Shown here: piece after piece, positions 19,900-36,963 of the stretch
Numbering within the stretch: the first letter of the stretch is position 1
How the letters are laid out: every line of letters starts with the position of its first letter
NCBI GenBank assembly: GCA_002376875.1
Contig: DFOT01000011.1
Coordinates: forward strand, 71,034 to 135,033
DNA from: Opitutia bacterium UBA3534
GTDB taxonomy: Bacteria; Verrucomicrobiota; Verrucomicrobiia; Opitutales; UBA3534
DNA: 64,000 nt
Direction of reading: 5' to 3'
Position numbers and translations under genes: made by a program
The notes under the pieces: generated by a model
Seen by the model: only the letters and a program-made list of their open reading frames with translations
Databases searched by the model: none
What the model was told of the DNA's origin: nothing

Positions 19900-20736
19900 C
19901 TAGGCCTGCTTTGCAGGGCCGGTGCATAGCGGGACTTGAAGAGCCGGGATCTCTATCCCCTCTTGGTCAAAACGCGCCTTTATCTCTGCACCTAAGCAAC
20001 GCTTTAGCGGGATGTAGTTCTTCGTCTGCGTCCAAACGCCGTAATGAATATCTAAATGAGTATCCTTAAAGGTACGCAGGGAAATCCAAGTCTCGGGCTC
20101 GTCCAAGCTGTATTTATTTTTAGCGGCAATGTCTTTTAGAACACTCATAACACGGTGGATATCTTCATCGACCTTCACCCGGACCTCTAGGTCATAACGA
20201 CGGATAGGAAAGCGTGTAATGTTAATTGTATTCTCTTTAGCAATGACGTTATTAGGGACACGCAGCATACTATTGTCTAGCATACGAATTTTGACCGAAA
20301 GCATATCAATGGCTAAAACAAAGCCGATCTTGTCATCAATCTCGACCATGTCCCCGACTTCAAAAGGCTTCTCCCAGAACATGAAGATACCATTCACCAT
20401 ATTAGAGAGGCTTGTCTGGGCGGCAAAACCTAAGGCTACCGTAATAATCCCTGCAGCACCCAAAAGCGTAGTGAGCTTCACCCCGAGTTGGTCTAGAATC
20501 GTAATAATAACTAAGACACTCCCGGCGTAAACAATGACCTTATGCCACACAAACTCCGCATGGGCGGAAACACGGTGGTGGCAAATCCCTCTGACCAGGC
20601 GAGCAAAAGCGTAAATCAAAGGAAAGCCTACTGCGGCAATAAATAGAGCAATAATCGCATTATCCCAATTCATCAGATCAAAAATCTGTTGAATATCGTT
20701 TATAGCTTCTGTGGGTGCTGAGTGTTTTGCGTCCAT
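19900..20736 (-). CDS. Mechanosensitive ion channel, MscS family
   Basis: 278 aa. Three N-terminal TM helices, then GFAAQTSLSNMVNGIFMFWEKPFEVGDMVEID, the pore helix/beta-domain signature. Confidence 0.8.
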   Translation of the reverse strand: MDAKHSAPTEAINDIQQIFDLMNWDNAIIALFIAAVGFPLIYAFARLVRGICHHRVSAHAEFVWHKVIVYAGSVLVIITILDQLGVKLTTLLGAAGIITVALGFAAQTSLSNMVNGIFMFWEKPFEVGDMVEIDDKIGFVLAIDMLSVKIRMLDNSMLRVPNNVIAKENTINITRFPIRRYDLEVRVKVDEDIHRVMSVLKDIAAKNKYSLDEPETWISLRTFKDTHLDIHYGVWTQTKNYIPLKRCLGAEIKARFDQEGIEIPALQVPLCTGPAKQA

Positions 20737-20737
20737 A

Positions 20738-21526
20738 TTATTCGCTCAGACCAAATGTCTTGAGTAAGAAATTGTGTGGAGGGTGTTCAATTGCTGCGGT
20801 CAGGAGCATCGGTGTGCGTGCTTGTGTCGGCGGCTTTGTTGCGTAAGAGACATTACTGAGCAAATGCGTGCCATGATAATGCACAGAGACCTGATTAGTC
20901 CATAGGCGCTGGATACCCTGGTAAATGTTAAGGTACTTTGCCCGTAAGCATACCTGAACGCAATCTAAAGAAAGGCTGGATTGATTGTGAATGAGGACTG
21001 GGCAAATGGCGCGATGAGGACTAACACTAAAGGCATCTAGACGACGACGGGCAAAGGTCCTCAAGGCGAAGCACAGCTGCCCCTCAGTATGCTCACCAAA
21101 CCAACTGTCTGAAGGCGGCTTCACGGGGATTTCATTCGTCACGACTGTATCTGCCCCTTGCCCGAGCACTGGGGTAATCCACAGAGGAATGCTTACATAA
21201 AATAAGATCTTGGCCTGACTCGGCAAAACCAAAGGGTGATTCGGCCGGAAGAGCAAGGGCCTACGGGGCATATTAGGGATAAAGCGCAAATGAGAAGTAT
21301 CCTGATTCAGGGCATAGCGCTGGAACTCCAACCCCTCCGGGAATTCGGCATCATACTCAATACGCATCTCATCGGTATCCTCATCTGCATAAGAACTTGC
21401 GATTAGCCAATCATATTCTAGACGGCGGACGTAGAGTGTTAAGTTCCCACACTGCCACAAGACAGAGCTGTCCTGCTCCACTTCAAGTGGACTCCAGAGA
21501 TCAAAAATAGAAAGTGAGGTGGTCAA
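20738..21526 (-). CDS. Hypothetical protein; its stop lies 1 nt before the MscS-family gene start
   Basis: 262 aa, soluble-looking, no motif recognised. Stop at 20738 and MscS start at 20736 suggest co-transcription. Confidence 0.45.
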   Translation of the reverse strand: MTTSLSIFDLWSPLEVEQDSSVLWQCGNLTLYVRRLEYDWLIASSYADEDTDEMRIEYDAEFPEGLEFQRYALNQDTSHLRFIPNMPRRPLLFRPNHPLVLPSQAKILFYVSIPLWITPVLGQGADTVVTNEIPVKPPSDSWFGEHTEGQLCFALRTFARRRLDAFSVSPHRAICPVLIHNQSSLSLDCVQVCLRAKYLNIYQGIQRLWTNQVSVHYHGTHLLSNVSYATKPPTQARTPMLLTAAIEHPPHNFLLKTFGLSE

Positions 21527-24928: not shown

Positions 24929-26673
24929 TGCGCTCTTCACAAAAAAACTGGCGCAACATTGAGCGTCGCATGCACAAGCTCTATAAAGATGCCCCTATCG
25001 AACGCCTGATGGAGCGCTTTGAGATGCTCATAGGCCGCTACGGCGTCGGACTTAAGGCTCCCAAGACAAAAACTCATTTTAGCCAAGAAGATGTCTTACT
25101 GATCGCCTACCCTGACAATATTCAGAATGGATCAGAAGCAACCTTGGCTACACTGCATAAGTTTTGCGTGCGCCACCTCAAGAAAGCCTTCAACACGATT
25201 CACCTGCTTCCCTTTTTCCCCTCCTCCTCAGATGAAGGCTTCTCTGTCATCAACTACCGCAAGATTGAGCCCCGACTAGGCGCCTGGAAGCATATTCAGG
25301 CCTTCTCTCAGGACTTTAAGCTTATGGTGGACTTGGTATTGAACCACTGCTCACGAAAAAGCGCGTGGTTTAATAGCTTTATAAATGGCATCGAGCCTTA
25401 TCAACGTTATTTCATTACAGAAGATCCGCAGACAGACCTCTCTAAGGTCACCCGCCCTCGCACAAGCTCCCTCCTAAATAAAGTCTCTACACGAGATGGA
25501 GACGCTTACGTTTGGTGTACCTTCAGTCCTGATCAGATTGACCTTAACTGGAAAGACCCTGACGTACTCTTTGAGTTTCTTGATATTCTATTTTACTACA
25601 TATCTCAAGGAGCACGGATTGTCCGCCTGGATGCAGTCGGCTTCCTCTGGAAAAAGCCTGGGAGTAATTGCATTCATTTGCCTGAGACTCATCAACTCAT
25701 CAAGCTGCTCCATGACTGTCTTCAGATTGCAGCCCCTCATGTCTTACTTGTGACAGAGACCAACGTCCCTCATCAAGAAAATATTAGTTATTTCGGAAGC
25801 TCGGATGAGGCCCACATGGTCTATAACTTTGCACTCCCCCCGCTATTATTACACCTATTCCTAAAAGAAGATTCTAGCCAATTCATTGAGTGGCTTAAAG
25901 CGCTGCCAACACCCCCAAAAGGCTGTACTTTCTTGAACTTTATAGCAAGTCATGACGGCATAGGATTACGCCCCCTAGAAGGCATACTGCCCCCTAAGGA
26001 AATTGAATTCATACTCGAGACAACGGCACAACGCGGGGCTCAAGTAAGCTACAAAACAACTGAAAATGCACAAAAAACGCCTTACGAGCTTAATACGACT
26101 CTTTTAAGTGCGCTCACAATCCCTCAAGAACCCTCAGACATAAGCCTCAAGCGTTACCTGTGCTTACACGCGCTATTCCTAGCGCTCAAAGGAATCCCTG
26201 CGATCTACCTCAATAGCCTAATGGCTACACCGAACCTCCCGCAGGATCCTGAAAACCCGCGGGCAACAAACCGCAAAAAGTGGCAAGAAAAGGAACTAGA
26301 AACCCTCCTCAAAAAAGAACACAGCCCTCACGCGCGAGCTTTTAAACAGTTTCAACACTTACTTCAGACGCGTAACCAATGTAAAGCATTCAGCCCAGAT
26401 GCAGACATCAAGGTATACAGCACACCCTCAAGCCTTGTTGTATTCCAACGTACCTGCATGCAAACACAAGAGACGATCTTATGTCTTTTTAATGTGACCA
26501 ACACCCCTCAGTCCTTAGAAAGCCTAACGGACATGCCCTCAAACATAATTCAAGACATTATCGCAGGGGATACACTCGCACTAGAGGACACAACAGCTAT
26601 GCTGCAGCCTTATCAAGCAGTCTGGGGGCTTGTTGCCGTAGGGGCCCAATATAACCAACCGGTTACACCGTAA
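24925..26673 (+). CDS. GH13 sucrose-phosphorylase-like glycoside phosphorylase
   Basis: 582 aa. HLLPFFPSSSDEGFSVINYRKIEPRLG, VRLDAVGFLWK (nucleophile region), VTETNVP, NFIASHDGIGLRP. These resemble sucrose/glucosylglycerate phosphorylases. Confidence 0.7.
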   Translation: MMRSSQKNWRNIERRMHKLYKDAPIERLMERFEMLIGRYGVGLKAPKTKTHFSQEDVLLIAYPDNIQNGSEATLATLHKFCVRHLKKAFNTIHLLPFFPSSSDEGFSVINYRKIEPRLGAWKHIQAFSQDFKLMVDLVLNHCSRKSAWFNSFINGIEPYQRYFITEDPQTDLSKVTRPRTSSLLNKVSTRDGDAYVWCTFSPDQIDLNWKDPDVLFEFLDILFYYISQGARIVRLDAVGFLWKKPGSNCIHLPETHQLIKLLHDCLQIAAPHVLLVTETNVPHQENISYFGSSDEAHMVYNFALPPLLLHLFLKEDSSQFIEWLKALPTPPKGCTFLNFIASHDGIGLRPLEGILPPKEIEFILETTAQRGAQVSYKTTENAQKTPYELNTTLLSALTIPQEPSDISLKRYLCLHALFLALKGIPAIYLNSLMATPNLPQDPENPRATNRKKWQEKELETLLKKEHSPHARAFKQFQHLLQTRNQCKAFSPDADIKVYSTPSSLVVFQRTCMQTQETILCLFNVTNTPQSLESLTDMPSNIIQDIIAGDTLALEDTTAMLQPYQAVWGLVAVGAQYNQPVTP

Positions 26674-26968
26674 TCCTCAGGATGAGTTCTTTGCTTGCTC
26701 GCCTTCAGAGTCAGCATTTTGCTGATCATTCTGCTGCTGAGACTCTTCAGAAGATGTCTTCTCTTCAGCCGGATTCTCCTTCGAATCTTCCTTCTTATTG
26801 ACGACTTGTTCGTGTTTTCTAAAAGCTATGGGGCCCATGGCTGCTGCGGATTAAGTTGGTGCTATTGCTTAGCTAGTCCTATGCCAACTCCAATAAACAC
26901 TTACTAGCTAGGGATTTGGCCCAAGAAGGAAAATAATCCACATAAACTCAACCTAAACAATAAGGATC

Positions 26969-28201
26969 CTAGGAGTCGGAAACTGCGGACTTACGGCGAC
27001 GCAGGAAGTCCCGAACTGCGATAGAAAACACACCAAATCCCATGAACATGGTTGCGGGCTCAGGGATAGGTACAATCTCACCAGTACCTAATTGAACCGC
27101 TCCGGTAATCCCCTGATCAGCCCAATGCACATTGGAGAGAAAGTCTGAAGACAAGGTTGTGTTAAAGATCACTTGGTCATTACCGCCACCAGTACCAAGG
27201 CCGTCCCAATTATCAATGGTAAGCATTCCTGAAGAATGAGTACCAGACTCATAAGTGAGGGTATTGTTCCCTGAACCTAATTTGATAGTAGAGTCATCCG
27301 TTAGTGTCAGGCTATTCATTGTTTCATCCACGCCACCAGCAAGCTCGTAAGTCCCTCCGGCAAGGATCATATTCGCATCATCATTAATGGCAAAGCTACA
27401 CTCTTCTAAGAGGGTGCCTCCATTTACAATCACGTTGCTCACCTCTTCGAGTGAGTCGTGGTGCTGCAGTTTCATTGTGCCTGCATTTACGGTAACATCA
27501 CCGGTGAAAGTCGTGGCTCCCTGGATTTTGACAGTACCCGTATTATTTTTTACTAAATTCCCTGTACCTGTAATGTCATCCTGGGTACGAACCGTTCCTA
27601 CATTATTAAAGGTTAGTGTATTATTATTCAGGTTAATCTGGTCTCTAATTCTAAAGTCTCTGTTAACCTCTTGGTTAATCTCCAAGTCATTATTTAAGGT
27701 CATTTCGACCCAAATCTCGTGATTGTCTGAGCCCCACGCACTCGCCTCAATATTAATATAAGAACTACCCCCGCCAACACCTGAATCAAAGACAATCTCC
27801 TCATCGTTGTAAGTATCATCAATCGTGTACTTATACTTACCTCTAAAGGTCATACTATGGACCACTTGGCTATCGATCTTAAAATCGATAAATTGATCAC
27901 TTCCTACATAGTCATCGGTAAAAAAAACTTTAGGGGTAACCCCACCAATAGTCGTTGGATTGTCGTTAGAATCCCAATTATTGTCATCAGTACTGTTTAA
28001 ATCCCAGTCTCGATTACCTGTGTCATTATCCCAGTACCACTCACCATCTCCTGAGCCCCCTCCGCCACCACCGCCACTAGTGCTCGAAGAACTACTAGCC
28101 ACAAGGGCCCCTGGCATAGCCAAAAGCACACACGCTAAAGAAAGCTTGAAGGCTCCCAAAAAGCTTAGGGGGAAAGGGTTCTGTGGGGTTACTGTGCTCA
28201 T
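26969..28201 (-). CDS. PEP-CTERM-anchored autotransporter-associated beta-strand (PATR) repeat protein, paralog P1
   Basis: Track 26969..28207 starts at GTG; ATG 28201 is preferred. Signal peptide, Ser/Gly run SSSSSTSGGGGGGGSG, W-rich module EWYWDNDTGNRDW...NNW...NPTTIGGVTPKVFF, PATR-like TGTGNLVKNNTGTVKIQG, C-terminal VPIPEPATMFMGFGVFSIAVRDFLRRRK. Confidence 0.85.
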   Translation of the reverse strand: MSTVTPQNPFPLSFLGAFKLSLACVLLAMPGALVASSSSSTSGGGGGGGSGDGEWYWDNDTGNRDWDLNSTDDNNWDSNDNPTTIGGVTPKVFFTDDYVGSDQFIDFKIDSQVVHSMTFRGKYKYTIDDTYNDEEIVFDSGVGGGSSYINIEASAWGSDNHEIWVEMTLNNDLEINQEVNRDFRIRDQINLNNNTLTFNNVGTVRTQDDITGTGNLVKNNTGTVKIQGATTFTGDVTVNAGTMKLQHHDSLEEVSNVIVNGGTLLEECSFAINDDANMILAGGTYELAGGVDETMNSLTLTDDSTIKLGSGNNTLTYESGTHSSGMLTIDNWDGLGTGGGNDQVIFNTTLSSDFLSNVHWADQGITGAVQLGTGEIVPIPEPATMFMGFGVFSIAVRDFLRRRKSAVSDS

Positions 28202-28269
28202 AGACACAAAAAAGGTAATTCCTTAGAGAAATCGGCTATTTCTAGCTAGTCTTGAGCCTATCTGAGCCT

Positions 28270-29442
28270 CTAAAGGCCTTTTTTCCTGCGGCGCGCTAAT
28301 ATATCACACCCCGTAAGCGCCCCTAAGATACTGCCTACCAACAAAGTAGCAGGCTCAGGGATCGGAACGATCTCTCCTGTAGCGAGTTGCGTTGCTCCGG
28401 TAATTCCTTGATCCGCCCAATGCACATTGGAGAGAAAATCAGCAGATAAAGTCGTATTAAAGATCACCTGATCGTTGCCTCCACCAGAGCCTGAGCCATC
28501 CCAGTCATCAATGGTCAGTAGGCCGCCCACACGAGAGCCAGACTCATAAGTAAGCGTATTATTCCCTGAACCTAATTTGATGGTAGAATCAGCGGTGAGC
28601 GTCAGGCTATTCATTGTCTCATCTACACCATAAGCAAGCTCGTAAGTCCCGCCGGCAAGAGTCATGTTTGCATCATCATTAATTGCAAAACTACATTCTT
28701 CTAAGAGCGTACCTCCATTCACGATCACATTACTGATTTCCTCTAAGGAGTCATGATCTTGTAGCTTCATCACCCCAGCATTTATTGTCACGTCTCCGGT
28801 GAAAGTGGTTGCTCCTTGAATCTTTACCGTACCTGTGTTATTTTTAACAAGATTTCCGGTACCTGTAATGTCATCCTGGGTACGAATAGTGCCTACATTA
28901 TTAAAAGTTAGGGTATTATTTTGAAGGTTTATCTTATCCCTCAATCGTAGATCCTTATTGACTTCCTGGTTGATCTCAAGGTCATTGTTCAAGGTCATTT
29001 CGATCCAGATTTCATGGTCACTACTCCCTCCAGAGCTCGCTTTTACATGCAAATAAGATGTACCGCCCTCACTCCCTGTATCAAAGATAAGATCGGTGCT
29101 ATCAGTATAGTCATCTAAGGTATATTTACGCTTTCCCTTAAGCGTCAGGCTATGGATCGTTTTGTCATTCCCTTTGATGTTTATAAACTGATTACTACTA
29201 ACATATTGATCAGTAAAAAACACCTTGGGGGTAACCCCACTCCCAGAGATAGTTGGGTTACTATTGGGATTCCAATTATTCTTGTCTGAAGAGCTATCAC
29301 TCCAGTTACTATTGCCAGTGCCATTGTCCCAATACCAATTATCTGGAGGAATACCTGAGCCTCCAGAACTAGCCAACAAGCAGCTAGGCAGCAGCACTGC
29401 CACCAAGGTGCAAAAGCAAACATATGATGAACATTTGGACAT
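28270..29442 (-). CDS. PEP-CTERM-anchored PATR repeat protein, paralog P2
   Basis: 390 aa. Signal peptide, NWYWDNGTGNSNW...NNW...NPTISGSGVTPKVFF, same PATR core as P1, C-terminal VPIPEPATLLVGSILGALTGCDILARRRKK. Confidence 0.85.
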   Translation of the reverse strand: MSKCSSYVCFCTLVAVLLPSCLLASSGGSGIPPDNWYWDNGTGNSNWSDSSSDKNNWNPNSNPTISGSGVTPKVFFTDQYVSSNQFINIKGNDKTIHSLTLKGKRKYTLDDYTDSTDLIFDTGSEGGTSYLHVKASSGGSSDHEIWIEMTLNNDLEINQEVNKDLRLRDKINLQNNTLTFNNVGTIRTQDDITGTGNLVKNNTGTVKIQGATTFTGDVTINAGVMKLQDHDSLEEISNVIVNGGTLLEECSFAINDDANMTLAGGTYELAYGVDETMNSLTLTADSTIKLGSGNNTLTYESGSRVGGLLTIDDWDGSGSGGGNDQVIFNTTLSADFLSNVHWADQGITGATQLATGEIVPIPEPATLLVGSILGALTGCDILARRRKKGL

Positions 29443-29476
29443 AAAAAAGGACGACTTAAACTAGTAAATCGTCCTT
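29443..29476 (-). terminator. Intrinsic-terminator-like hairpin between paralogs P3 and P2
   Basis: Minus strand reads AAGGACGA-(14 nt)-TCGTCCTTTTTTAT, an 8-bp perfect stem. The T-run directly abuts the P2 ATG (29442). Confidence 0.55.
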
Positions 29477-29507
29477 ATCTCCTTAACCTTTAGCCGTTTG
29501 CTTACTA

Positions 29508-30686
29508 TTAGGAAGGCGCAGGGCCTTTGTTCTTCCTGTGGCGGCGCCAGAGGTCTGCCCCGGCTAAAGCGCTCATGAGGCCTCCTGCCAGGAGGGTGGC
29601 AGGCTCAGGCACAGGAACGATCTCTCCAGTAGCTAGTTGCTTGGCTCCGGTAATCCCTAGGTCCTGCCAGTAAACATTAGCTAAGAAATCAGATGACAGT
29701 GTGGTGTTAAATATAATCTGGTCGTTACCGCCCCCGGTGCCAAGGCCATCCCAGTCATCAATCGTAAGCAAGCCAGAGGTATAAACCCCAGAGTTATAGG
29801 TAAGGGTATTATTTCCAGAACCTAACTTGATGGTAGAATCATCTGTAAGAGTTAAACTATTCATTGTCTCGTCTACGCCATAAGCTAGTTCGTAAGTACC
29901 TCCAGCAAGGGTCATGTGAGCATCATTATTTATTGCAAAACTACATTCTTCTAGGAGGGTTCCCCCATTCACAATCACATTGCTAACTTCTTCTAAAGAG
30001 TCATGGTCTTGTAGTCTCAGTGTTCCTGCATTTACAGTCACATCCCCTGTGAAGGTTGTAGCTCCTTGAATCTTTACAGTACCGGTATTGTTCTTAATCA
30101 TGTTTCCAGTCCCTGTAATATCATCCTGAGTACGCACTGTGCCTACGTTATTAAAGGTAATAGTATTACTATTAAGATTAATCTTATCCCGCAACCGCAG
30201 GTCTGTATTCACCTGCTGTTTTACTTCTAGGTCGTTATTAAGAGTCATCTCGATCCAGATCTCGTGGTCACTACTCCCTGCTCCACTAGCAGCTACTTTC
30301 AGGACAGACTTCCCTCCGACACTTCCTGAGTCAAAAATCAAATCCGTACTATCCGTAAAATCATCTAGGGTATATTTATACTGCCCCTTAAGGGTTAACT
30401 TGTGGATAGTTTTATCAGAATCCTTAATGCTAACAAACTGGTCACTCCCTACGAACTGGTCATTAAAAACAACCTTAGGGGTTACTCCACTTATTGTGGT
30501 CGGGTTACTATTAGGCTTCCAATTATTCTGATCTGAAGCACTATCACTCCACTTACCTGTTCCTGCGCCTGCGTCCCACTTCCAAGTATTCGCTGCCTGC
30601 ACAGGCAAAGTCATTGATACCCAACACAATGCTGTGATAGCCCCTATACTAACAATCTTTGGAATCTGCTCCATAGTGTGACGCAT
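29508..30686 (-). CDS. PEP-CTERM-anchored PATR repeat protein, paralog P3
   Basis: Track 29508..30692 starts at TTG. ATG 30686 lies 8 nt after AGGAGG. NTWKWDAGAGTGKW...NNW...NPTTISGVTPKVVF, PATR core, C-terminal VPVPEPATLLAGGLMSALAGADLWRRHRK. Confidence 0.85.
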   Translation of the reverse strand: MRHTMEQIPKIVSIGAITALCWVSMTLPVQAANTWKWDAGAGTGKWSDSASDQNNWKPNSNPTTISGVTPKVVFNDQFVGSDQFVSIKDSDKTIHKLTLKGQYKYTLDDFTDSTDLIFDSGSVGGKSVLKVAASGAGSSDHEIWIEMTLNNDLEVKQQVNTDLRLRDKINLNSNTITFNNVGTVRTQDDITGTGNMIKNNTGTVKIQGATTFTGDVTVNAGTLRLQDHDSLEEVSNVIVNGGTLLEECSFAINNDAHMTLAGGTYELAYGVDETMNSLTLTDDSTIKLGSGNNTLTYNSGVYTSGLLTIDDWDGLGTGGGNDQIIFNTTLSSDFLANVYWQDLGITGAKQLATGEIVPVPEPATLLAGGLMSALAGADLWRRHRKNKGPAPS

Positions 30687-30708
30687 GCCCAAACCCTCCT
30701 ATAACTAT

Positions 30709-30737
30709 ATACTAATATATTTATATATTATTATCAA
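30709..30737 (-). promoter_or_regulatory. Sigma-70-like promoter for P3-P2-P1
   Basis: Minus strand reads TTGATA-17 nt-TAGTAT, about 20 nt upstream of the AGGAGG/ATG of P3, inside an 88-bp A+T-rich gap. Confidence 0.45.
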
Positions 30738-30780
30738 GAATATCTGGCTTTTATTGTTACTCCTTTACTCTCAACGAGAT

Positions 30781-31938
30781 TCACGATTGACGCCTACGGC
30801 GTAAGATATCTCCCCCAGTTAAAAAGCCCAAAATGCCTCCTACTAAGAGAGTTGCGGGTTCGGGAACAGGGACAATTTCGCCGCTACCGAGCTGGAATGC
30901 CCCCGTGATGCCTTGATCGGCCCAATAAACATTATCCAGGAAGTCCTGAGATAGGCTTGTATTAAATACGATACGGTCCGCCCCACCACCGCTCCAATTA
31001 CCGACCCAATCATCAATAGTGAGCAGCCCAGCGGTGTAAGTGCCTGAGCTGTAGGTAAGCCGGTTATTCCCTGAGCCCAATCTGATGGTAGAGTTTGCTG
31101 TTAAGGTCAAATTATCCAAGGTTTGGTCCTGCCCAGCGCTAAACTGGTAGGTACCCCCGGCTAAAACCATGTCGGCTGTTTGACTGATTGGATTGCCTGA
31201 CATGGCCAGCAAGGTCCCTCCATTAATAATGACTGAATTAACTTCTTCTAAGGAGCTAGCATTGCGCAGCTCTAGGGTACCAGCGTTCACAGTCACGTCC
31301 CCTGTAAAGGTCGTGGCAGTACGCATCTCGACAGTCCCTGTATTACTCTTCACTAGATGACCTGTACCGGTAAGGGGGTCTTTTATTTGAACCAAACCGG
31401 TACTATCGATGGTTAAGGTGTTTGCATTGAGATTAATAGCTTTTTGGAACTGGAGCGTCTCGTTTACTAGGTTTTTAACCTCCAAATCATCCAAAAGCTC
31501 AATTTCTACATTAAAGATATGGTTACTATCCCCACCTACATCGGAAACGACACTAATCGTACTCGCACCGCCTCCGGTACCAGAATCAAAAATAAGGCTT
31601 GAGGATCCTTTTTGCACAAGCTTGTAGCGATAGGGCCCGCTTAGCGTGATGGTATCAATTGTTTTATCCGCACCGCGCACTTCTACAGTTTGATTACTCC
31701 CAACAAAATCATCATTAAAGAAGATATTAGGGGTTACCCCACTGACTGTAGTGGGGTTGGTATCCGTATCCCAGTTAGGCGCATCAGCAAGGTCCTCACT
31801 CCAGTCCTTATTACCTGTGTCATTATCCCAGTACCAATCTCCTGCTTGCAGCGGTAAAGCAGGCGCACTAAGCAAAGCTGCAATGAGTAAACTCATTGCA
31901 AGGCGTTTGATAGGGCTATTTGGGGTTAATGGGGTCAT
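30781..31938 (-). CDS. PEP-CTERM-anchored PATR repeat protein, paralog P4 (more diverged)
   Basis: 385 aa. GDWYWDNDTGNKDW...PNW...NPTTVSGVTPNIFF, PATR repeats, C-terminal VPVPEPATLLVGGILGFLTGGDILRRRRQ. Lies 28 nt downstream of P5. Confidence 0.85.
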   Translation of the reverse strand: MTPLTPNSPIKRLAMSLLIAALLSAPALPLQAGDWYWDNDTGNKDWSEDLADAPNWDTDTNPTTVSGVTPNIFFNDDFVGSNQTVEVRGADKTIDTITLSGPYRYKLVQKGSSSLIFDSGTGGGASTISVVSDVGGDSNHIFNVEIELLDDLEVKNLVNETLQFQKAINLNANTLTIDSTGLVQIKDPLTGTGHLVKSNTGTVEMRTATTFTGDVTVNAGTLELRNASSLEEVNSVIINGGTLLAMSGNPISQTADMVLAGGTYQFSAGQDQTLDNLTLTANSTIRLGSGNNRLTYSSGTYTAGLLTIDDWVGNWSGGGADRIVFNTSLSQDFLDNVYWADQGITGAFQLGSGEIVPVPEPATLLVGGILGFLTGGDILRRRRQS

Positions 31939-31966
31939 GATAAATTTCTTACCACAGATTGTTATA

Positions 31967-34276
31967 CTATGTTGTATCTTTATCGTTTAGCAAACTATTA
32001 CGCATCTGCCTACGACGCAAAAAATCTTTACCAGCAAGTAAGCTTAAAAGCCCACCAACTAAGAGAGTCCCAGGCTCAGGAATTGGGACAATTTCTCCAC
32101 TAGGGAGTTGTACTGCACCTGTAATCCCTAAATCACCCCAATAAACATTGTTTAAGAAATCTTGAGAAAGGGCTGTATCAAAAACTAAACGGTCATCACC
32201 ACCACCAGTTCCCAGACCATCCCAATTAGTAATCGTGAGTAATCCAGAGGTATATACACCTGAGGTAAAGGTGAGACGGCTTGTGCCCGACCCTGTTACC
32301 CCGAGATCAATAGTTGAATTAGCCGTGAGTGTCAGCGTATCTAAGGTCTGGTCCTTTCCATCTGTAGCTAAGGTACCACCGTTTAAATTAAGGTCTGCGG
32401 TTGAATTAATCGTGTTGTTACGAGCTAATAGCAAGGTTCCGCCATTAATATTAATCGTCTCGGCAGATTGTAAAGCATCTACCCCACGAGACCGTAACGT
32501 TCCATCATTAATCGTAATATCCGTGGCAGACCCTAGAGAGCGCTCCCCAATAGCATTCAGTAATCCGTCATTGACGATAACTTCAGTCACGCCTCCTAAG
32601 GAGTCGGTAGCTTCCGCACGGATTTCTCCCTCATTCATAACAACTCTACCCGTAAAGTTTAGGTTGTCGTTTTCGATCTCGAGCGTCCCTACCCCTTCTT
32701 TAATTAAGTCACCCGTACCAGTGATTTCACGTGAGCCTGTAGGGTTATCACGATAACGCACCGTACCAATGGTATTTACGGTAAGGTCGTTCGCACCCAT
32801 ATCGATGTCACCCCTCAGCTGGAATGTGTGCGTATCGATCAGGTGGTCAATACGCAGATCATTATTCATTTGAATGTCTAGCTGAATCTGGTGGGCTGCG
32901 CCTCCTGTACCACTAGGGCTAATAACGATATTAGATTCTGTTGCTGCAGAAGTGCCTACATCAAAAATAAGTTTTGGGTTAAGGGTCGAGCTACCACTTG
33001 TAGGGTCCTCTGCCCTAAGGATGTACCGATACTGCCCACTAAAGGTCATGTTATTAATGGTTTTATCCCCATCGCGGACTCTAATCGTTTGGTTTCCACT
33101 AATGTAGCTATCCTGGAACACTACATGAGGCGTCTTGCCAGAAATGGTATAAGGGTTTACATCACCAAGCCAATTAGTCTCCCAGTCATTAGGCGCACCC
33201 GCTGCACCCCAACGACGGCCGCTGCCTCCTCCGGCATCATTATCCCAAAAGAAGGTACTTGGGTCTCCTGAGGCCACTATACCGAAATTACGGATTTCTA
33301 TGACCTGGCGAGCGGCTCCAGTACCAGCACTGAAGCCGAAGCCAAAGTCATCGGGGCGATCGTAGCTAGATAAGTCAGCAGTAAAGAGCGTGGTGTATCC
33401 GCTTCCGGAACCTACTTCAAGCTCTACGCTCAATTGCTCCATATCATCAAGAATTATCCGGACACCACGGTAGTCTACACCTGTAGTATCTGGACGAGAG
33501 GTTGCTGTTGGAAAGTCTAGGTCACTCGTGAGGCTAGGAATAGAAGGCGTACCGGGTAAGGTTTCATTTGTTCCTCCTGTGCCAGCTAAATATTCATAAC
33601 CTTCATACCATTCACCCAAATGAGGAGAGCCTCCATCTGTAACTTTTTCTCCAGGGCCTCGTAAGACAACTTCATTAGGTAAAAACCCTGGCCCACCGAT
33701 ACGGCCTTCAGTTGGATTTGAATAGTTCCCCCAATTATCAAAACCTACACCAATGTACCCTCCTGCCATACCTTCTTCATTAGAAGGGTTACTATCACCA
33801 AAGAATTTCTGGGCATACCCCATAGACCCACCTGTTGCCCCTGGGTCAAAACCCTCAGCAGCATCATACATAAAGAAGGTAAACCCATCCCCTGCACCTG
33901 CACCATCCTGCTCCCACATAGTAAATTCAAAGCTTACCGAGAGGACACCATCTGAGGACGGGATTGTAGGTGTAAAATAGGCAGAGTTTGCTTGGTCTCC
34001 GCTTAGGGTCGTCATACGCAACCACCCATCATCAACCGCATCAATAGTCCCTACTTCTGGGTCCGCAGCAATAGCTGTAGCCCCAGAGGTTAAACGAGGG
34101 CCAGGAGAACTCCCCTCTTGCACAAAATTCCAACCTGGAGCCGTACTGCCCTTAAAGTCATCAAGATAAGTAAAACTAGCAAATGCAGGGCTACTTAGAG
34201 CGACACAACATCCCACTACTGCCATGGCACGCACAGCAGCTGAAATATCTACTAGCCTATTTCTAATCCAACACAT
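31967..34276 (-). CDS. L-type (legume-like) lectin domain + PATR repeats + PEP-CTERM protein, paralog P5
   Basis: 769 aa with a signal peptide. Residues about 35-335 carry lectin-like motifs GDGFTFFMYD, GGYIGVGFDNWGN and FGFGFSAGTGAARQVIEIRNF. Then the W-rich module FFWDND...NW...NPYTISGKTPHVVF, several PATR-like repeats, and C-terminal VPIPEPGTLLVGGLLSLLAGKDFLRRRQ. Confidence 0.8.
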   Translation of the reverse strand: MCWIRNRLVDISAAVRAMAVVGCCVALSSPAFASFTYLDDFKGSTAPGWNFVQEGSSPGPRLTSGATAIAADPEVGTIDAVDDGWLRMTTLSGDQANSAYFTPTIPSSDGVLSVSFEFTMWEQDGAGAGDGFTFFMYDAAEGFDPGATGGSMGYAQKFFGDSNPSNEEGMAGGYIGVGFDNWGNYSNPTEGRIGGPGFLPNEVVLRGPGEKVTDGGSPHLGEWYEGYEYLAGTGGTNETLPGTPSIPSLTSDLDFPTATSRPDTTGVDYRGVRIILDDMEQLSVELEVGSGSGYTTLFTADLSSYDRPDDFGFGFSAGTGAARQVIEIRNFGIVASGDPSTFFWDNDAGGGSGRRWGAAGAPNDWETNWLGDVNPYTISGKTPHVVFQDSYISGNQTIRVRDGDKTINNMTFSGQYRYILRAEDPTSGSSTLNPKLIFDVGTSAATESNIVISPSGTGGAAHQIQLDIQMNNDLRIDHLIDTHTFQLRGDIDMGANDLTVNTIGTVRYRDNPTGSREITGTGDLIKEGVGTLEIENDNLNFTGRVVMNEGEIRAEATDSLGGVTEVIVNDGLLNAIGERSLGSATDITINDGTLRSRGVDALQSAETININGGTLLLARNNTINSTADLNLNGGTLATDGKDQTLDTLTLTANSTIDLGVTGSGTSRLTFTSGVYTSGLLTITNWDGLGTGGGDDRLVFDTALSQDFLNNVYWGDLGITGAVQLPSGEIVPIPEPGTLLVGGLLSLLAGKDFLRRRQMRNSLLNDKDTT

Positions 34277-34416: not shown

Positions 34417-35553
34417 ATGCGACTACTCCGAGCCATTCACTCCGTTAACCCTCGAGGCGGAGGCCCTATCGAGGCCGTCCTGCAGTCTTCTCGCACCCTG
34501 CAAAAGCTAGGGCATGAGGTTGAAATCCTCTCTTTGGATGCCCCTACAAGCCCAGATCTTGCCTCTTTGGAATTCCCCTGCCATGCCTTTGGGCCTACTC
34601 AGCTAGGTAATTATGGTTACAGCCCAACACTCATTCCCTGGCTAAAAACAAATGCAGCCAACTATGATGCTGTGATTGTTGAAGGGCTTTGGCAGTTCCA
34701 TGGGCTTGCGGTATGGAAGGCTTTACACAACACCAACACTCCCTACTTTGTTTTCCCTCATGGAATGCTTGATCCTTGGTTTAAAAAAGCCTACCCCCTT
34801 AAACACTTAAAGAAATGGCTCTACTGGCCCTGGGCAGAATACCAGGTATTGCGGGATGCAAAAAAAACCTGTTTTACAACCCAAGCCGAAGCGGATCTAG
34901 CCCGACAATCATTTTGGCTTTATAAAGTCAATGAGGCTGTAGCCCCCTTGGGGATTGAGTCTGCACCGGGAGACCCCGAACAACAAAAAGCACTCTTTTT
35001 TGAAAAACTCCCCCAGCTCAAACATAAACGCTTTATCTTATACCTAGGGCGCATCACGCCTAAAAAAGGGCCCGACTTACTCATTGAGGCCTGGAAGCGT
35101 TTAAACCCTGAGCAGGTCGAACTCTTAGTTGCAGGCCCACCTCAAAGTACTGAGTACCTAAAACAACTCCAAAATGAAGCGCAGTCCTGCAGTACTATTC
35201 ATTTCTCGGGCATGCTTACGGGTGACCTCAAGTGGGGAGCATTTCAAGCAGCTGAGGCATTTATACTTCCCTCCCACCAAGAAAATTTTGGAATGGTTGT
35301 GGCTGAAGCCTTGAGCACCCAAACCCCTGTCTTGACGACTACAAAAGTTAATACAGCCTCCCTCCTAGAGGCAAATAACTGCGCCATTGTGCAAGAAGAC
35401 ACTCTAGAGGGAGTTAAGGAGCTGCTACAGATATGGTTAAGAATGAGCGATAAAGACCGATATACTATGCTGGAGCAGTGTATCCCCTGCTTTCAGAAAC
35501 ATTTTGAAATTCAACAAGCTTCGCACACACTAATCACACTCTTAAGTGCTTGA
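34417..35553 (+). CDS. Glycosyltransferase, GT4-like (GT-B fold)
   Basis: 378 aa. C-terminal ILPSHQENFGMVVAEALSTQTPVLTT (E-x7-E). Divergent from the PEP-CTERM array. Confidence 0.75.
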   Translation: MRLLRAIHSVNPRGGGPIEAVLQSSRTLQKLGHEVEILSLDAPTSPDLASLEFPCHAFGPTQLGNYGYSPTLIPWLKTNAANYDAVIVEGLWQFHGLAVWKALHNTNTPYFVFPHGMLDPWFKKAYPLKHLKKWLYWPWAEYQVLRDAKKTCFTTQAEADLARQSFWLYKVNEAVAPLGIESAPGDPEQQKALFFEKLPQLKHKRFILYLGRITPKKGPDLLIEAWKRLNPEQVELLVAGPPQSTEYLKQLQNEAQSCSTIHFSGMLTGDLKWGAFQAAEAFILPSHQENFGMVVAEALSTQTPVLTTTKVNTASLLEANNCAIVQEDTLEGVKELLQIWLRMSDKDRYTMLEQCIPCFQKHFEIQQASHTLITLLSA

Positions 35554-35558
35554 TTATT

Positions 35559-36110
35559 ATGGCTATCAATCAAGACACCTTTACGGGACCGAGTTTTTCT
35601 CTCAAAAACCGACTGCTCCGAGCACTCTGGGGTATTGTTTATAACCTATTTTTCCGCTTTAGCCCCCGGCCTTGCCATGCCTGGAGGGCTTTTTTATTAA
35701 GACTTTTTGGAGCTAACCTGGGGCGAGGCTGCCACATTTACCCTAAAGCAGTCATTTGGGCCCCCTGGAACTTGAGCTGCGGAGACGAAACGGGAGTGGC
35801 TGATCATGCAATTCTTTACACTCAAGCCCCCATATATCTTGGGAAACGCTGTGTAATTTCCCAGGGAAGCCACCTATGCACAGGGACCCATGATTATACC
35901 CAACGTGGCTTCCCCTTAACCGCTGCACCGATAACCATAGGTGACGATGCTTGGGTTGCTGCAGAAGCCTTCGTGCACGGAGGCGTCACGATAGGTGCAG
36001 GCAGTGTGATCGCTGCACGTGCTGTCGTAAATAAAGACATACCCGAGTGGATGATCTGTGCAGGGCACCCTTGTAAACCCATTAAACCGAGAGTATTAAA
36101 CGATGAATAA
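35559..36110 (+). CDS. Hexapeptide-repeat O-acetyltransferase (WcaF/LacA-like)
   Basis: Track 35550..36110 starts at TTG; ATG 35559 is preferred. Left-handed beta-helix repeats ITIGDDAWVAAEAFVHGGVTIGAGSVIAARAVV. Confidence 0.7.
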   Translation: MAINQDTFTGPSFSLKNRLLRALWGIVYNLFFRFSPRPCHAWRAFLLRLFGANLGRGCHIYPKAVIWAPWNLSCGDETGVADHAILYTQAPIYLGKRCVISQGSHLCTGTHDYTQRGFPLTAAPITIGDDAWVAAEAFVHGGVTIGAGSVIAARAVVNKDIPEWMICAGHPCKPIKPRVLNDE

Positions 36111-36963
36111 GGTACCTATCACAATACTCATTCCGGTTAAAAACGAAGAGGCAAACCTTCCACGTTGTCTGGACTGTATCCGTTGGGCCGATGAAGTCTT
36201 TATTGTAGACTCTCAAAGTACTGATAAGTCTGTAGAAATTGCTGAGGCTTGGGGAGCAAAAGTCTTCGACTTTAAATTCAATGGCAGATGGCCGAAGAAA
36301 AGAAACTGGGCCCTAGAAACCCTACCCTTTAGCCATGAATGGATCTTTATACTCGATGCAGATGAAGTGCTCCCCCCTGAATCTGAGGAGGAGTTTAGAA
36401 ATATAGTCACAAACCCCAATAACCCTTATAATGGCTATTGGATTAACCGCCGCTTTATGTTTATGGATAAGTGGCTCAAGCATGCCTACTTCCCTAATTG
36501 GGTATTGCGCTGCTTTAAGCACAAACTTGGCCGTTATGAGCAACTCACTGATACAGATGCTGCAACCACAGATAATGAAGTCCACGAGCCTTTAATTGTT
36601 CAGGGAGAGCTTGCACGTATGCATTGCGTGTTAGATCACTATGCCTTCCCTACGGTCGAAGTCTTTGTGACTAAGCACAACTACTACTCTAACTGGGAGG
36701 CTGCTATAGATTGTGACCCGAAATTAGGCTTAAGCTCTACAAACATCTCACGCAATCACCAGGGGTACTTTAAAATGAAGCTTAAACAGTGGTCTAGGAA
36801 GATGCCCTTTAGGCCGCTCATGCGCTTTTTATATATTTATATTTTCCAAAAAGGCTTCCTTGATGGCCGGGAAGGCTACTATTTCGCAAGACTCCATGGG
36901 ATTTACGAATTCCTCTCGGTAGCCAAAGCTTACGAACTTAGGAAACAACAAAAGAAAAAATAA
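36103..36963 (+). CDS. Glycosyltransferase family 2-like
   Basis: 286 aa. ITILIPVKNEEANLPRCL, VDSQSTDKS, LDADE (DxD). 8-nt overlap with the acetyltransferase. Confidence 0.75.
   Translation: MNKVPITILIPVKNEEANLPRCLDCIRWADEVFIVDSQSTDKSVEIAEAWGAKVFDFKFNGRWPKKRNWALETLPFSHEWIFILDADEVLPPESEEEFRNIVTNPNNPYNGYWINRRFMFMDKWLKHAYFPNWVLRCFKHKLGRYEQLTDTDAATTDNEVHEPLIVQGELARMHCVLDHYAFPTVEVFVTKHNYYSNWEAAIDCDPKLGLSSTNISRNHQGYFKMKLKQWSRKMPFRPLMRFLYIYIFQKGFLDGREGYYFARLHGIYEFLSVAKAYELRKQQKKK

Follow-up and report, generated by a model that had tools for sequence, protein, structure and literature searches.

Why does Opitutia bacterium UBA3534, an uncultured Verrucomicrobium that is widespread in Tara Oceans, keep five neighbouring genes for what looks like one kind of surface protein? 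The genes, called P1 to P5 here, lie on the reverse strand at 26969-34276 of a 64,000-nucleotide stretch of contig DFOT01000011.1 (contig positions 71,034 to 135,033; hereafter the window, which supplies all coordinates given without a contig prefix). Their products combine PATR (autotransporter-associated beta-strand) repeats with a PEP-CTERM sorting tail. Here we report that the five array genes and two dispersed paralogs probably make up the full cargo set of the genome's single exosortase, and that their products most likely act in glycan binding and adhesion, as non-redundant rods on the surface or in the matrix.

Verrucomicrobia have many PATR proteins with PEP-CTERM tails, and databases already annotate them; the array adds to this known cargo class, of which it is otherwise an ordinary example. 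Its modest additions to the class are a one-family cargo of an unclassified exosortase, a pairing of headed and headless genes whose stalks are similar genome by genome, and a near-silent hotspot of divergence between strains. To our knowledge, it is still largely unknown where exosortase cargo goes, what accepts it and what it does. One exosortase with seven detected cargo proteins of one fold, one of them bearing a lectin, makes the relation between enzyme and cargo unusually simple to study.

Architecture of the array proteins

The genes, taken from the list of open reading frames (ORFs), are:

26969-28207, reverse strand: P1, 412 aa, GTG start; headless, with a Ser/Gly-rich linker after the putative signal peptide
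28270-29442, reverse strand: P2, 390 aa, ATG start; headless paralog
29508-30692, reverse strand: P3, 394 aa, TTG start; headless paralog
30781-31938, reverse strand: P4, 385 aa, ATG start; headless paralog
31967-34276, reverse strand: P5, 769 aa, ATG start; lead gene of the array

The original prediction, made from the DNA letters, described five same-strand paralogs 28-88 bp apart with one shared architecture. The ORF borders match it exactly, with gaps from P1 to P5 of 62, 65, 88 and 28 bp and a period of about 1250-1295 bp, and each element of the proposed architecture is present in a protein alignment: a hydrophobic N-terminus, a Trp-rich cap (W.WD..W..NW..NP.T..G.TP.V.F.D), a variable stretch, a repeat region, a D(D/N)W.G...GGG.D motif and a tail of VP(I/V)PEP, hydrophobic segment and RRR. 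The N-termini consist of a hydrophobic segment followed by small residues and are putative signal peptides. From N- to C-terminus, P5 runs through this putative signal peptide, an L-type lectin head, the Trp-rich cap and a beta-solenoid with two additional coils, and closes with the C-terminal module and the PEP-CTERM tail. Pairwise protein identity is 65-73% among P1-P3, 50-54% between P4 and P1-P3, and 42-50% between P5 and the others. The mature proteins have acidic isoelectric points (4.05-4.33), and Asn, Asp, Thr and Gly are abundant in them; their N-glycosylation sequons are not enriched over the expectation from composition.

The sorting tails were located by a six-frame search of the genome with the PEP-CTERM model PF07589 (cut-off 20.7 bits):

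31970-32086, reverse strand: P5 tail, VPIPEPGT, transmembrane segment and RRR; 21.4 bits
30784-30870, reverse strand: P4 tail, VPVPEPAT, transmembrane segment and RRRR; 20.2 bits alone, 21 with neighbouring hits in frame
29511-29615, reverse strand: P3 tail, VPVPEPAT, transmembrane segment and RRHRK; 24.0 bits
28273-28365, reverse strand: P2 tail, VPIPEPAT, transmembrane segment and RRRKK; 18.7 bits, under the cut-off
26972-27070, reverse strand: P1 tail, VPIPEPAT, transmembrane segment and RRRK; 16.0 bits, under the cut-off

In this search P3 and P5 stand above the cut-off by themselves, and P4 does so with its neighbouring in-frame hits. All five C-termini carry the full signature of VP(I/V)PEP(A/G)T, some 17-20 hydrophobic residues and a basic cluster (RRR or RRK). 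The repeat model TIGR02601 (cut-off 19.85 bits) is passed by P1 (22.2), P2 (22.1), P3 (25.1) and P4 (24.8), while the Pfam PATR model (PF12951) gives 22-26 bits, slightly short of its cut-off of 27. P5 has no direct PATR match; its stalk is homologous to the others along its whole length (domain E about 1e-80 with a hidden Markov model, HMM, of the family core). The proposed assignment to PATR and PEP-CTERM families holds on these grounds. No Pfam or NCBIfam match to an autotransporter beta-barrel was found in the array proteins, whose C-terminus is a single transmembrane helix. Because they are without a beta-barrel translocator domain, they are not classical (type Va) autotransporters.

When the last 101 residues of P4 (final turns, NW.G...GGG.D motif and tail) were used as a query, only 312 cluster representatives were retrieved among 1.84 billion proteins, nearly all with the match at the extreme C-terminus of proteins of 100-1800 aa. 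By sequence, this module of about 100 residues marks a discrete sub-family of PATR proteins.

The AlphaFold model of P3 (mean predicted local distance difference test score, pLDDT, 85.5; predicted TM-score, pTM, 0.81) is a continuous short-strand beta-solenoid over residues ~36-360, with confidence above 94 from residue ~150 on, and ends in a helix (364-388) that corresponds to the membrane segment of the tail; the P5 model has a pLDDT of 84.3, and short strands recur regularly along both models. The original prediction had pictured variable heads on a constant stalk. This stands for P5, which carries a lectin, and fails for P1-P4: they have no discrete heads, and their variable region (P3 residues ~88-150) forms the N-terminal turns of the same solenoid in the model, with no separate domain. 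Variation is thus highest in the turns of the N-terminal end, far from the tail, whereas the module directly before the tail is the most conserved.

The head that does exist is the following feature, supported by Foldseek and a sequence profile:

33242-34183, reverse strand: L-type (legume-like) lectin domain of P5, residues ~32-345

Searched against the PDB with Foldseek, its model matches peanut lectin (2pel), soybean agglutinin and ERGIC-53 at E values of 3e-9 to 1e-7, with probability 1.00 and a TM-score on the target of 0.65-0.74. At E of 1e-3 or better there are 209 PDB chains, and among the 50 matches listed all are chains of the L-type lectin fold. A profile of 12 homologous heads matched 56 legume lectin sequences (best E 1.8e-6), whereas the single P5 sequence reaches 17 bits on PF00139 against a cut-off of 26.3; precomputed annotation assigns PF18483 or PF00139 to more distant homologs of the head. 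The blocks DG..FF, GG..GY, FD..GN and GFSAGTG are invariant or nearly so in the head family and align with the sugar and metal loops of legume lectins. Predicted fold and sequence profile thus agree with the original suggestion of one lectin-headed member, and we regard the P5 head, as modelled, as a true L-type lectin domain. With such a lectin at its distal end, at least P5 would be expected to bind glycan.

A single exosortase and its probable cargo

The window encodes no exosortase, and processing by one had been expected on general grounds. A search of the genome (a 1.85 Mb assembly in 12 contigs, 96% complete) found one elsewhere, at C6:355512-356297, a protein of 516 aa that matches PF09721 with 142.6 bits. 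A genome without any exosortase had been named as grounds for refuting the original prediction, and the find goes against that refutation. Besides this Pfam match it passes a single exosortase model, the TIGR04178 signature (52.9 bits against a threshold of 23). The motifs ACSG, NVVR and WHD are present at positions 195, 238 and 260, and we take them to hold the conserved catalytic Cys, Arg and His. The protein continues at its C-terminus for about 230 residues more, an extension that has no convincing family match (DUF3485/EpsI-like at E 0.034 only); in other genomes of the order, too, exosortase hits commonly sit in open frames of ~515-575 aa. The gene sits beside truA and a gene for a coiled-coil protein, not among polysaccharide genes.

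To find cargo, every six-frame ORF of the genome was scanned with two HMMs, one for the family core and one for the tail, and with two regular expressions. This census found seven tail-bearing proteins, all of one family: the five of the array and two dispersed copies, at C9:367342-368484 and C6:188982-190079. No other PEP-CTERM candidate was found in these ORFs; the remaining hits to the regular expressions are without the C-terminal PEP motif, transmembrane helix, basic cluster and HMM support. On present evidence, therefore, the lone exosortase serves one protein family. Most model genomes have dozens of unrelated PEP-CTERM proteins and several exosortases. The association extends beyond this genome: among 41 genomes of the order, an exosortase occurs in 17 of the 17 with the family, and the family in none of the 12 without an exosortase (Fisher p = 3.8e-4).

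The surroundings of the dispersed copies differ. The neighbour of the gene at C9:367342-368484 codes for a large beta-helix surface protein of another kind, a TpsA-like exoprotein of two-partner secretion that has a TPS secretion domain and is at least 1698 aa long; the other copy lies next to DegT, GNAT and epimerase/ATP-grasp sugar genes.

Several results weigh against this reading of the array as exosortase cargo with a lectin-bearing, rod-like fold. The tails of P1 (16.0 bits) and P2 (18.7 bits) stay under the PF07589 cut-off even in the six-frame search; in whole-protein scans all five fall below it (14.4-19.9 against 20.7 bits), and TIGR02595 matches P4 alone, at 13.2 bits against a cut-off of 16. 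The exosortase fits no named subtype, with 107.1 bits on the XrtA model (threshold 208), 107.2 on XrtD (400) and 91.3 on the generic model TIGR02602 (105.55). With the genome 96% complete, further cargo could be missing. A Foldseek search with the stalk model gave no significant solved neighbour (best E 0.12); the non-significant top neighbours are all beta-helix proteins, namely the MpAFP antifreeze domain, UpaB, VacA, IcsA and tailspikes. Lastly, what we take to be the metal-site Glu of legume lectins is Gly in the P5 block GVGFD, by our own reading of the motif, so the metal dependence of this lectin may differ.

Age and maintenance of the copies

The original prediction argued for an old duplication under purifying selection, without recent gene conversion, from the comparison of P1 and P2. 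Its counts were exact (14 differences in 160 residues between HEIW and TLTYESG, and a longest identical DNA run of 28 nt), and the wider comparison agrees with its conclusion. Between paralogs the proportion of synonymous differences is 0.72-0.81, that is, saturated, and of non-synonymous differences 0.18-0.41. At positions with identical residues, codon identity among P1, P2 and P3 is 0.43-0.49, against about 0.37 expected from shuffling; of the other seven pairs, six do not differ significantly from random and P4-P5 is marginal (z = 2.1). Only the youngest copies thus retain a weak signal of shared ancestry. The stalk tree, P5(P4(P3(P1,P2))), has support of 96/94 or better and branches in the order in which the genes lie, which is what serial tandem duplication would produce. 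Selection for codon divergence as a means of suppressing recombination between repeats was also considered and is ruled out, codon identity being at or above random and never below it.

Comparison between strains gives a second measure of constraint. The array occurs with the same flanks in four other assemblies, five in total, and all five frames are intact throughout. Three of the four (NCBI, Tara and JGI records) do not diverge from the window in any 500-nt segment (0.000 throughout), so that the comparison involves two haplotypes; the differing one is a sister strain, L012, on a 47-kb ENA contig. For orthologs between the window and L012, synonymous divergence (dS) and its ratio to non-synonymous divergence (dN/dS) are:

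P5: dS 0.04, dN/dS 0.015
P4: dS 0.19, dN/dS 0.018
P2: dS 0.20, dN/dS 0.067
P3: dS 0.52, dN/dS 0.054
P1: dS 0.81, dN/dS 0.077

Flanking genes have a dS of 0.01-0.15. The ratios of 0.015-0.077 lie far from the value near 1 that had been named as the mark of decaying duplicates. Taken with the saturation between paralogs, they indicate that the duplications are old and that each copy has been maintained. That the array consists of redundant or decaying duplicates without separate functions is scarcely credible: nothing speaks for it beyond the tandem paralogy itself, and it would have to accommodate five intact frames in five independent assemblies, strong constraint on every ortholog, and proteins that are still 42-73% identical although their synonymous sites are saturated. 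The best-supported reading is that each paralog is kept for a non-redundant role.

A different account of the similar stalks is gene conversion, or concerted evolution, in place of purifying selection on independent old copies. The slight excess of codon identity among P1, P2 and P3 would suit it, as would codons 241-300 of P1-P2, where the synonymous proportion is lower, at 0.40-0.49, and the clustering of stalks by genome in the deeper relatives described below. The overall synonymous differences argue the other way, as does the shortness of the longest identical run. Moreover, when the L012 genes are compared in segments of 30 codons, the nearest sequence is the positional ortholog for every segment and never a paralog, which excludes paralog conversion as the source of the extra divergence between strains; and the strain-divergent patches contain almost no amino-acid change, which would not be expected from a donor paralog only 50-70% identical. 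No conversion tract was found in these comparisons. Recent conversion is ruled out by these results together, and we consider conversion as the general explanation of stalk similarity improbable.

Where, then, does the strain divergence come from? Most flanking 500-nt segments differ from L012 by about 0.2-1.6%, P4 to P1 by 3-17%, and P5, which is 99.9% identical to its ortholog, is almost unchanged. The array is a hotspot of divergence between the strains, and the excess is almost all synonymous. It looks like the import or retention of older alleles under strong purifying selection. Divergence from L012 is mosaic elsewhere as well: the patches lie at 26528-32001 (P4-P1, 3-17%), 35002-36001 (a GT4/acyltransferase region, 5-7%) and 20033-21027 (DUF432/MscS, 25-29%), a pattern that looks like recombination with more distant lineages.

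Exchange of alleles raises the possibility that the rods are recognition targets of phages or grazers and that variants are traded between strains under diversifying or balancing selection. The contrast between array and flanks speaks for it, and the amino-acid changes between strains do cluster in the same N-terminal turn (P3 125-138, P1 139-164), which is also the most variable part between paralogs. Yet dN/dS is 0.01-0.05 in the divergent patches, the extra divergence being nearly all silent; other divergent patches lie outside the array; and the comparison has two haplotypes only. Positive selection on the variable turn is unsupported, with dN/dS there of 0.04-0.05 against L012. We regard recognition by phages or grazers as rather unlikely, and retain the reading of older alleles kept under purifying selection.

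The N-terminus of P1 (28056-28207) is strongly rearranged relative to L012: the two strains differ there by an indel of six residues, by many substitutions and in the start codon, which is GTG in the window and ATG in L012. As this putative signal-peptide and linker region is rearranged and the start codon differs between strains, the true start of P1 is uncertain.

Deeper relatives show how headed and headless genes are associated over longer times. Homologs of the P5 head at 52-56% identity belong to proteins of 801-813 aa. On three contigs of uncultured relatives (L017, L018 and L019) a lectin-headed gene is directly followed by one headless PATR gene, in genomic contexts that differ from one another and from that of the array; the headless partner has a PEP-CTERM tail in L017 and L019, and in L018 the gene ends at the contig edge. 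An alignment-based scan of named genomes gave no confirmed relative, records of the window's own genome possibly having been left out of it. Stalks from these contigs group by lineage: the long and short stalks of L019 together (support 96/96), and the short stalk of L017 with the long ones of L017 and L018 (100/100). A single group of all lectin-headed stalks is rejected by the approximately unbiased (AU) test (p = 1e-4), a group that was named after the tree had been seen. The C-terminal stalks of neighbouring genes in those lineages are about 70-80% identical, with codon identity near random. The grouping of stalks by genome in several lineages requires that, over deep time, there has been either repeated duplication or concerted evolution in episodes; the pattern fits headless copies arising repeatedly from headed ones, as well as episodic homogenisation or co-evolution of stalks.

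Co-evolution of stalks would follow if the paralogs, instead of acting as independent alternative adhesins, co-assembled into one hetero-oligomeric, lectin-tipped surface fibre or coat, with the C-terminal stalk module as the interface for assembly or anchoring. This is the most interesting alternative, allowed but not required by the data. It would account for C-terminal halves of long and short paralogs that are 70-90% identical within a genome while their synonymous sites are near saturation, for stalks that cluster by lineage and not by head type (the AU result included), for the recurrence of the lectin-headed-then-headless order in three other lineages and in differing contexts, and for the strong constraint on all five copies. 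However, lineage-specific duplication with loss of the head gives the same tree without any interaction, the AU test carries the reservation noted above, and the two dispersed paralogs lie away from the array. We therefore hold co-assembly to be possible though not probable, and the conserved pairing of lectin-headed and headless genes makes it a concrete and testable hypothesis.

A related and equally tentative proposal is that of a minimal single-family system, in which the one long-form exosortase, itself unclassified, has no cargo other than this beta-solenoid family, and in which the family's C-terminal module (about 100 residues) co-evolves genome by genome. If this doubtful but attractive idea were correct, co-evolution of the module would reflect either the assembly of lectin-headed and headless paralogs into one lectin-tipped surface fibre or an extended recognition domain specific to the exosortase, and the array would offer a compact genetic model of the recognition of exosortase cargo and its incorporation into the envelope.

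Proposed pathway, precedents and gene neighbourhood

Returning to the preferred reading, of non-redundant cargo of one exosortase, we base processing and surface location on the established PEP-CTERM/exosortase model (PMC1569441). By that model, the N-terminal signal peptide would export each protein, the C-terminal helix and Arg cluster would hold it in the inner membrane, the exosortase would cut at the VP(I/V)PEP motif, and the protein would be handed to the cell surface or the exopolysaccharide layer. The mature product may be pictured as an acidic (isoelectric point about 4), Asn/Asp/Thr/Gly-rich beta-solenoid rod, with a lectin at the distal end in P5 and headless in P1-P4. Candidate ligands are polysaccharide made by the cell itself, particles or a host. 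The proteins would probably function in adhesion or in binding glycans at the surface, and the original description of the array as a family of alternative adhesins or glycan binders may be viewed in the same light.

PEP-CTERM proteins were first described in Verrucomicrobium spinosum, which has 65 copies, and Akkermansia muciniphila has 23 (PMC1569441, PMC4960237). In Akkermansia they have been detected in cell fractions by mass spectrometry, which shows only that they are made (PMC4960237). Apart from its putative signal peptides, the array shares with the cargo of these organisms the PEP motif followed by transmembrane segment and basic cluster, a genomic exosortase, paralogous expansion and polysaccharide-gene neighbours. 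It differs in that the cargo here is seven proteins of one family, with tails at or below the curated HMM thresholds, and in that the exosortase belongs to no named subtype and carries its extension of ~230 residues.

Other comparisons concern the parts of the proteins. With PATR proteins (PF12951, TIGR02601) the array proteins share the repeat unit and the predicted right-handed beta-solenoid rod; unlike PATR autotransporters they have no beta-barrel, their export would presumably run through Sec and the exosortase, and they carry the dedicated C-terminal module of about 100 residues (NW.G...GGG.D ... GEIVP.PEP). The P5 head resembles L-type lectins (legume lectins, ERGIC-53, PF18483) in fold, sequence profile and the DG-FF, GG-GY, FD..GN and GFSA.TG blocks, but it is a domain of ~310 residues with extra loops, fused N-terminally to a PEP-CTERM beta-solenoid.

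Other bacteria require PEP-CTERM proteins and exosortases for floc or biofilm phenotypes (PMC9850573, PMC9012009, PMC12188702). The floc proteins of Zoogloea resiniphila and Aquincola tertiaricarbonis (PMC9012009, PMC9850573) and the CrtB-dependent cargo of Nostoc punctiforme (PMC12188702) resemble the array proteins in sorting signal and association with exopolysaccharide and provide a functional precedent, although their passenger domains are unrelated. By analogy with these three systems, a role in aggregation or attachment may be proposed. The proteobacterial genes among these precedents depend on RpoN and PrsK/PrsR. In the array, by contrast, a search of the intergenic gaps gave no sigma-54 promoter, and matches to the sigma-54 pattern across the window are no more frequent than chance. 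Neither inverted repeats nor simple-sequence tracts, as signs of phase variation, were found in or between the array genes.

Features around and between the array genes are:

34417-36963, forward strand: cassette of GT4, hexapeptide acyltransferase and GT2 genes (Pfam hits), divergent from P5
34309-34337, reverse strand: sigma-70-like promoter candidate, TTGACA-17-TATATT, 11/12 consensus matches, about 30 nt upstream of P5
29447-29476, reverse strand: hairpin and U-run, terminator-like, between P3 and P2, ending at the P2 AUG

Beyond the GT4/acyltransferase/GT2 cassette lies a receiver-PP2C gene, and on the other side of the array a GT4 and GH13 pair. Synteny of the array and the glycan-synthesis cassette is kept in L012-L015. 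From its position, a functional link between the cassette and the array is possible. The glycosyltransferase genes that flank the array, and the nucleotide-sugar genes that flank one dispersed paralog, count in favour of the preferred reading. The 140-bp region upstream of P5 has two differences in L012.

The hairpin between P3 and P2 (-21.9 kcal/mol, z = -3.1) is identical in L012 while the adjoining coding DNA differs by 6-15%. Within the gap (29443-29507, reverse strand), an AAGGAG occupies the 5' foot of the 11-12-bp hairpin; the 3' foot carries the U-run, after which comes the P2 AUG, so that folding brings the Shine-Dalgarno-like sequence and the start codon to normal spacing. The hairpin might couple termination or attenuation with translation initiation.

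Downstream of P1, a 53-codon ORF (26677-26838, reverse strand) encodes an acidic peptide, rich in Ser, Glu and Gln and probably disordered. Two other assemblies annotate the ORF as a gene; the L012 frame is open and of similar length, with several changes.

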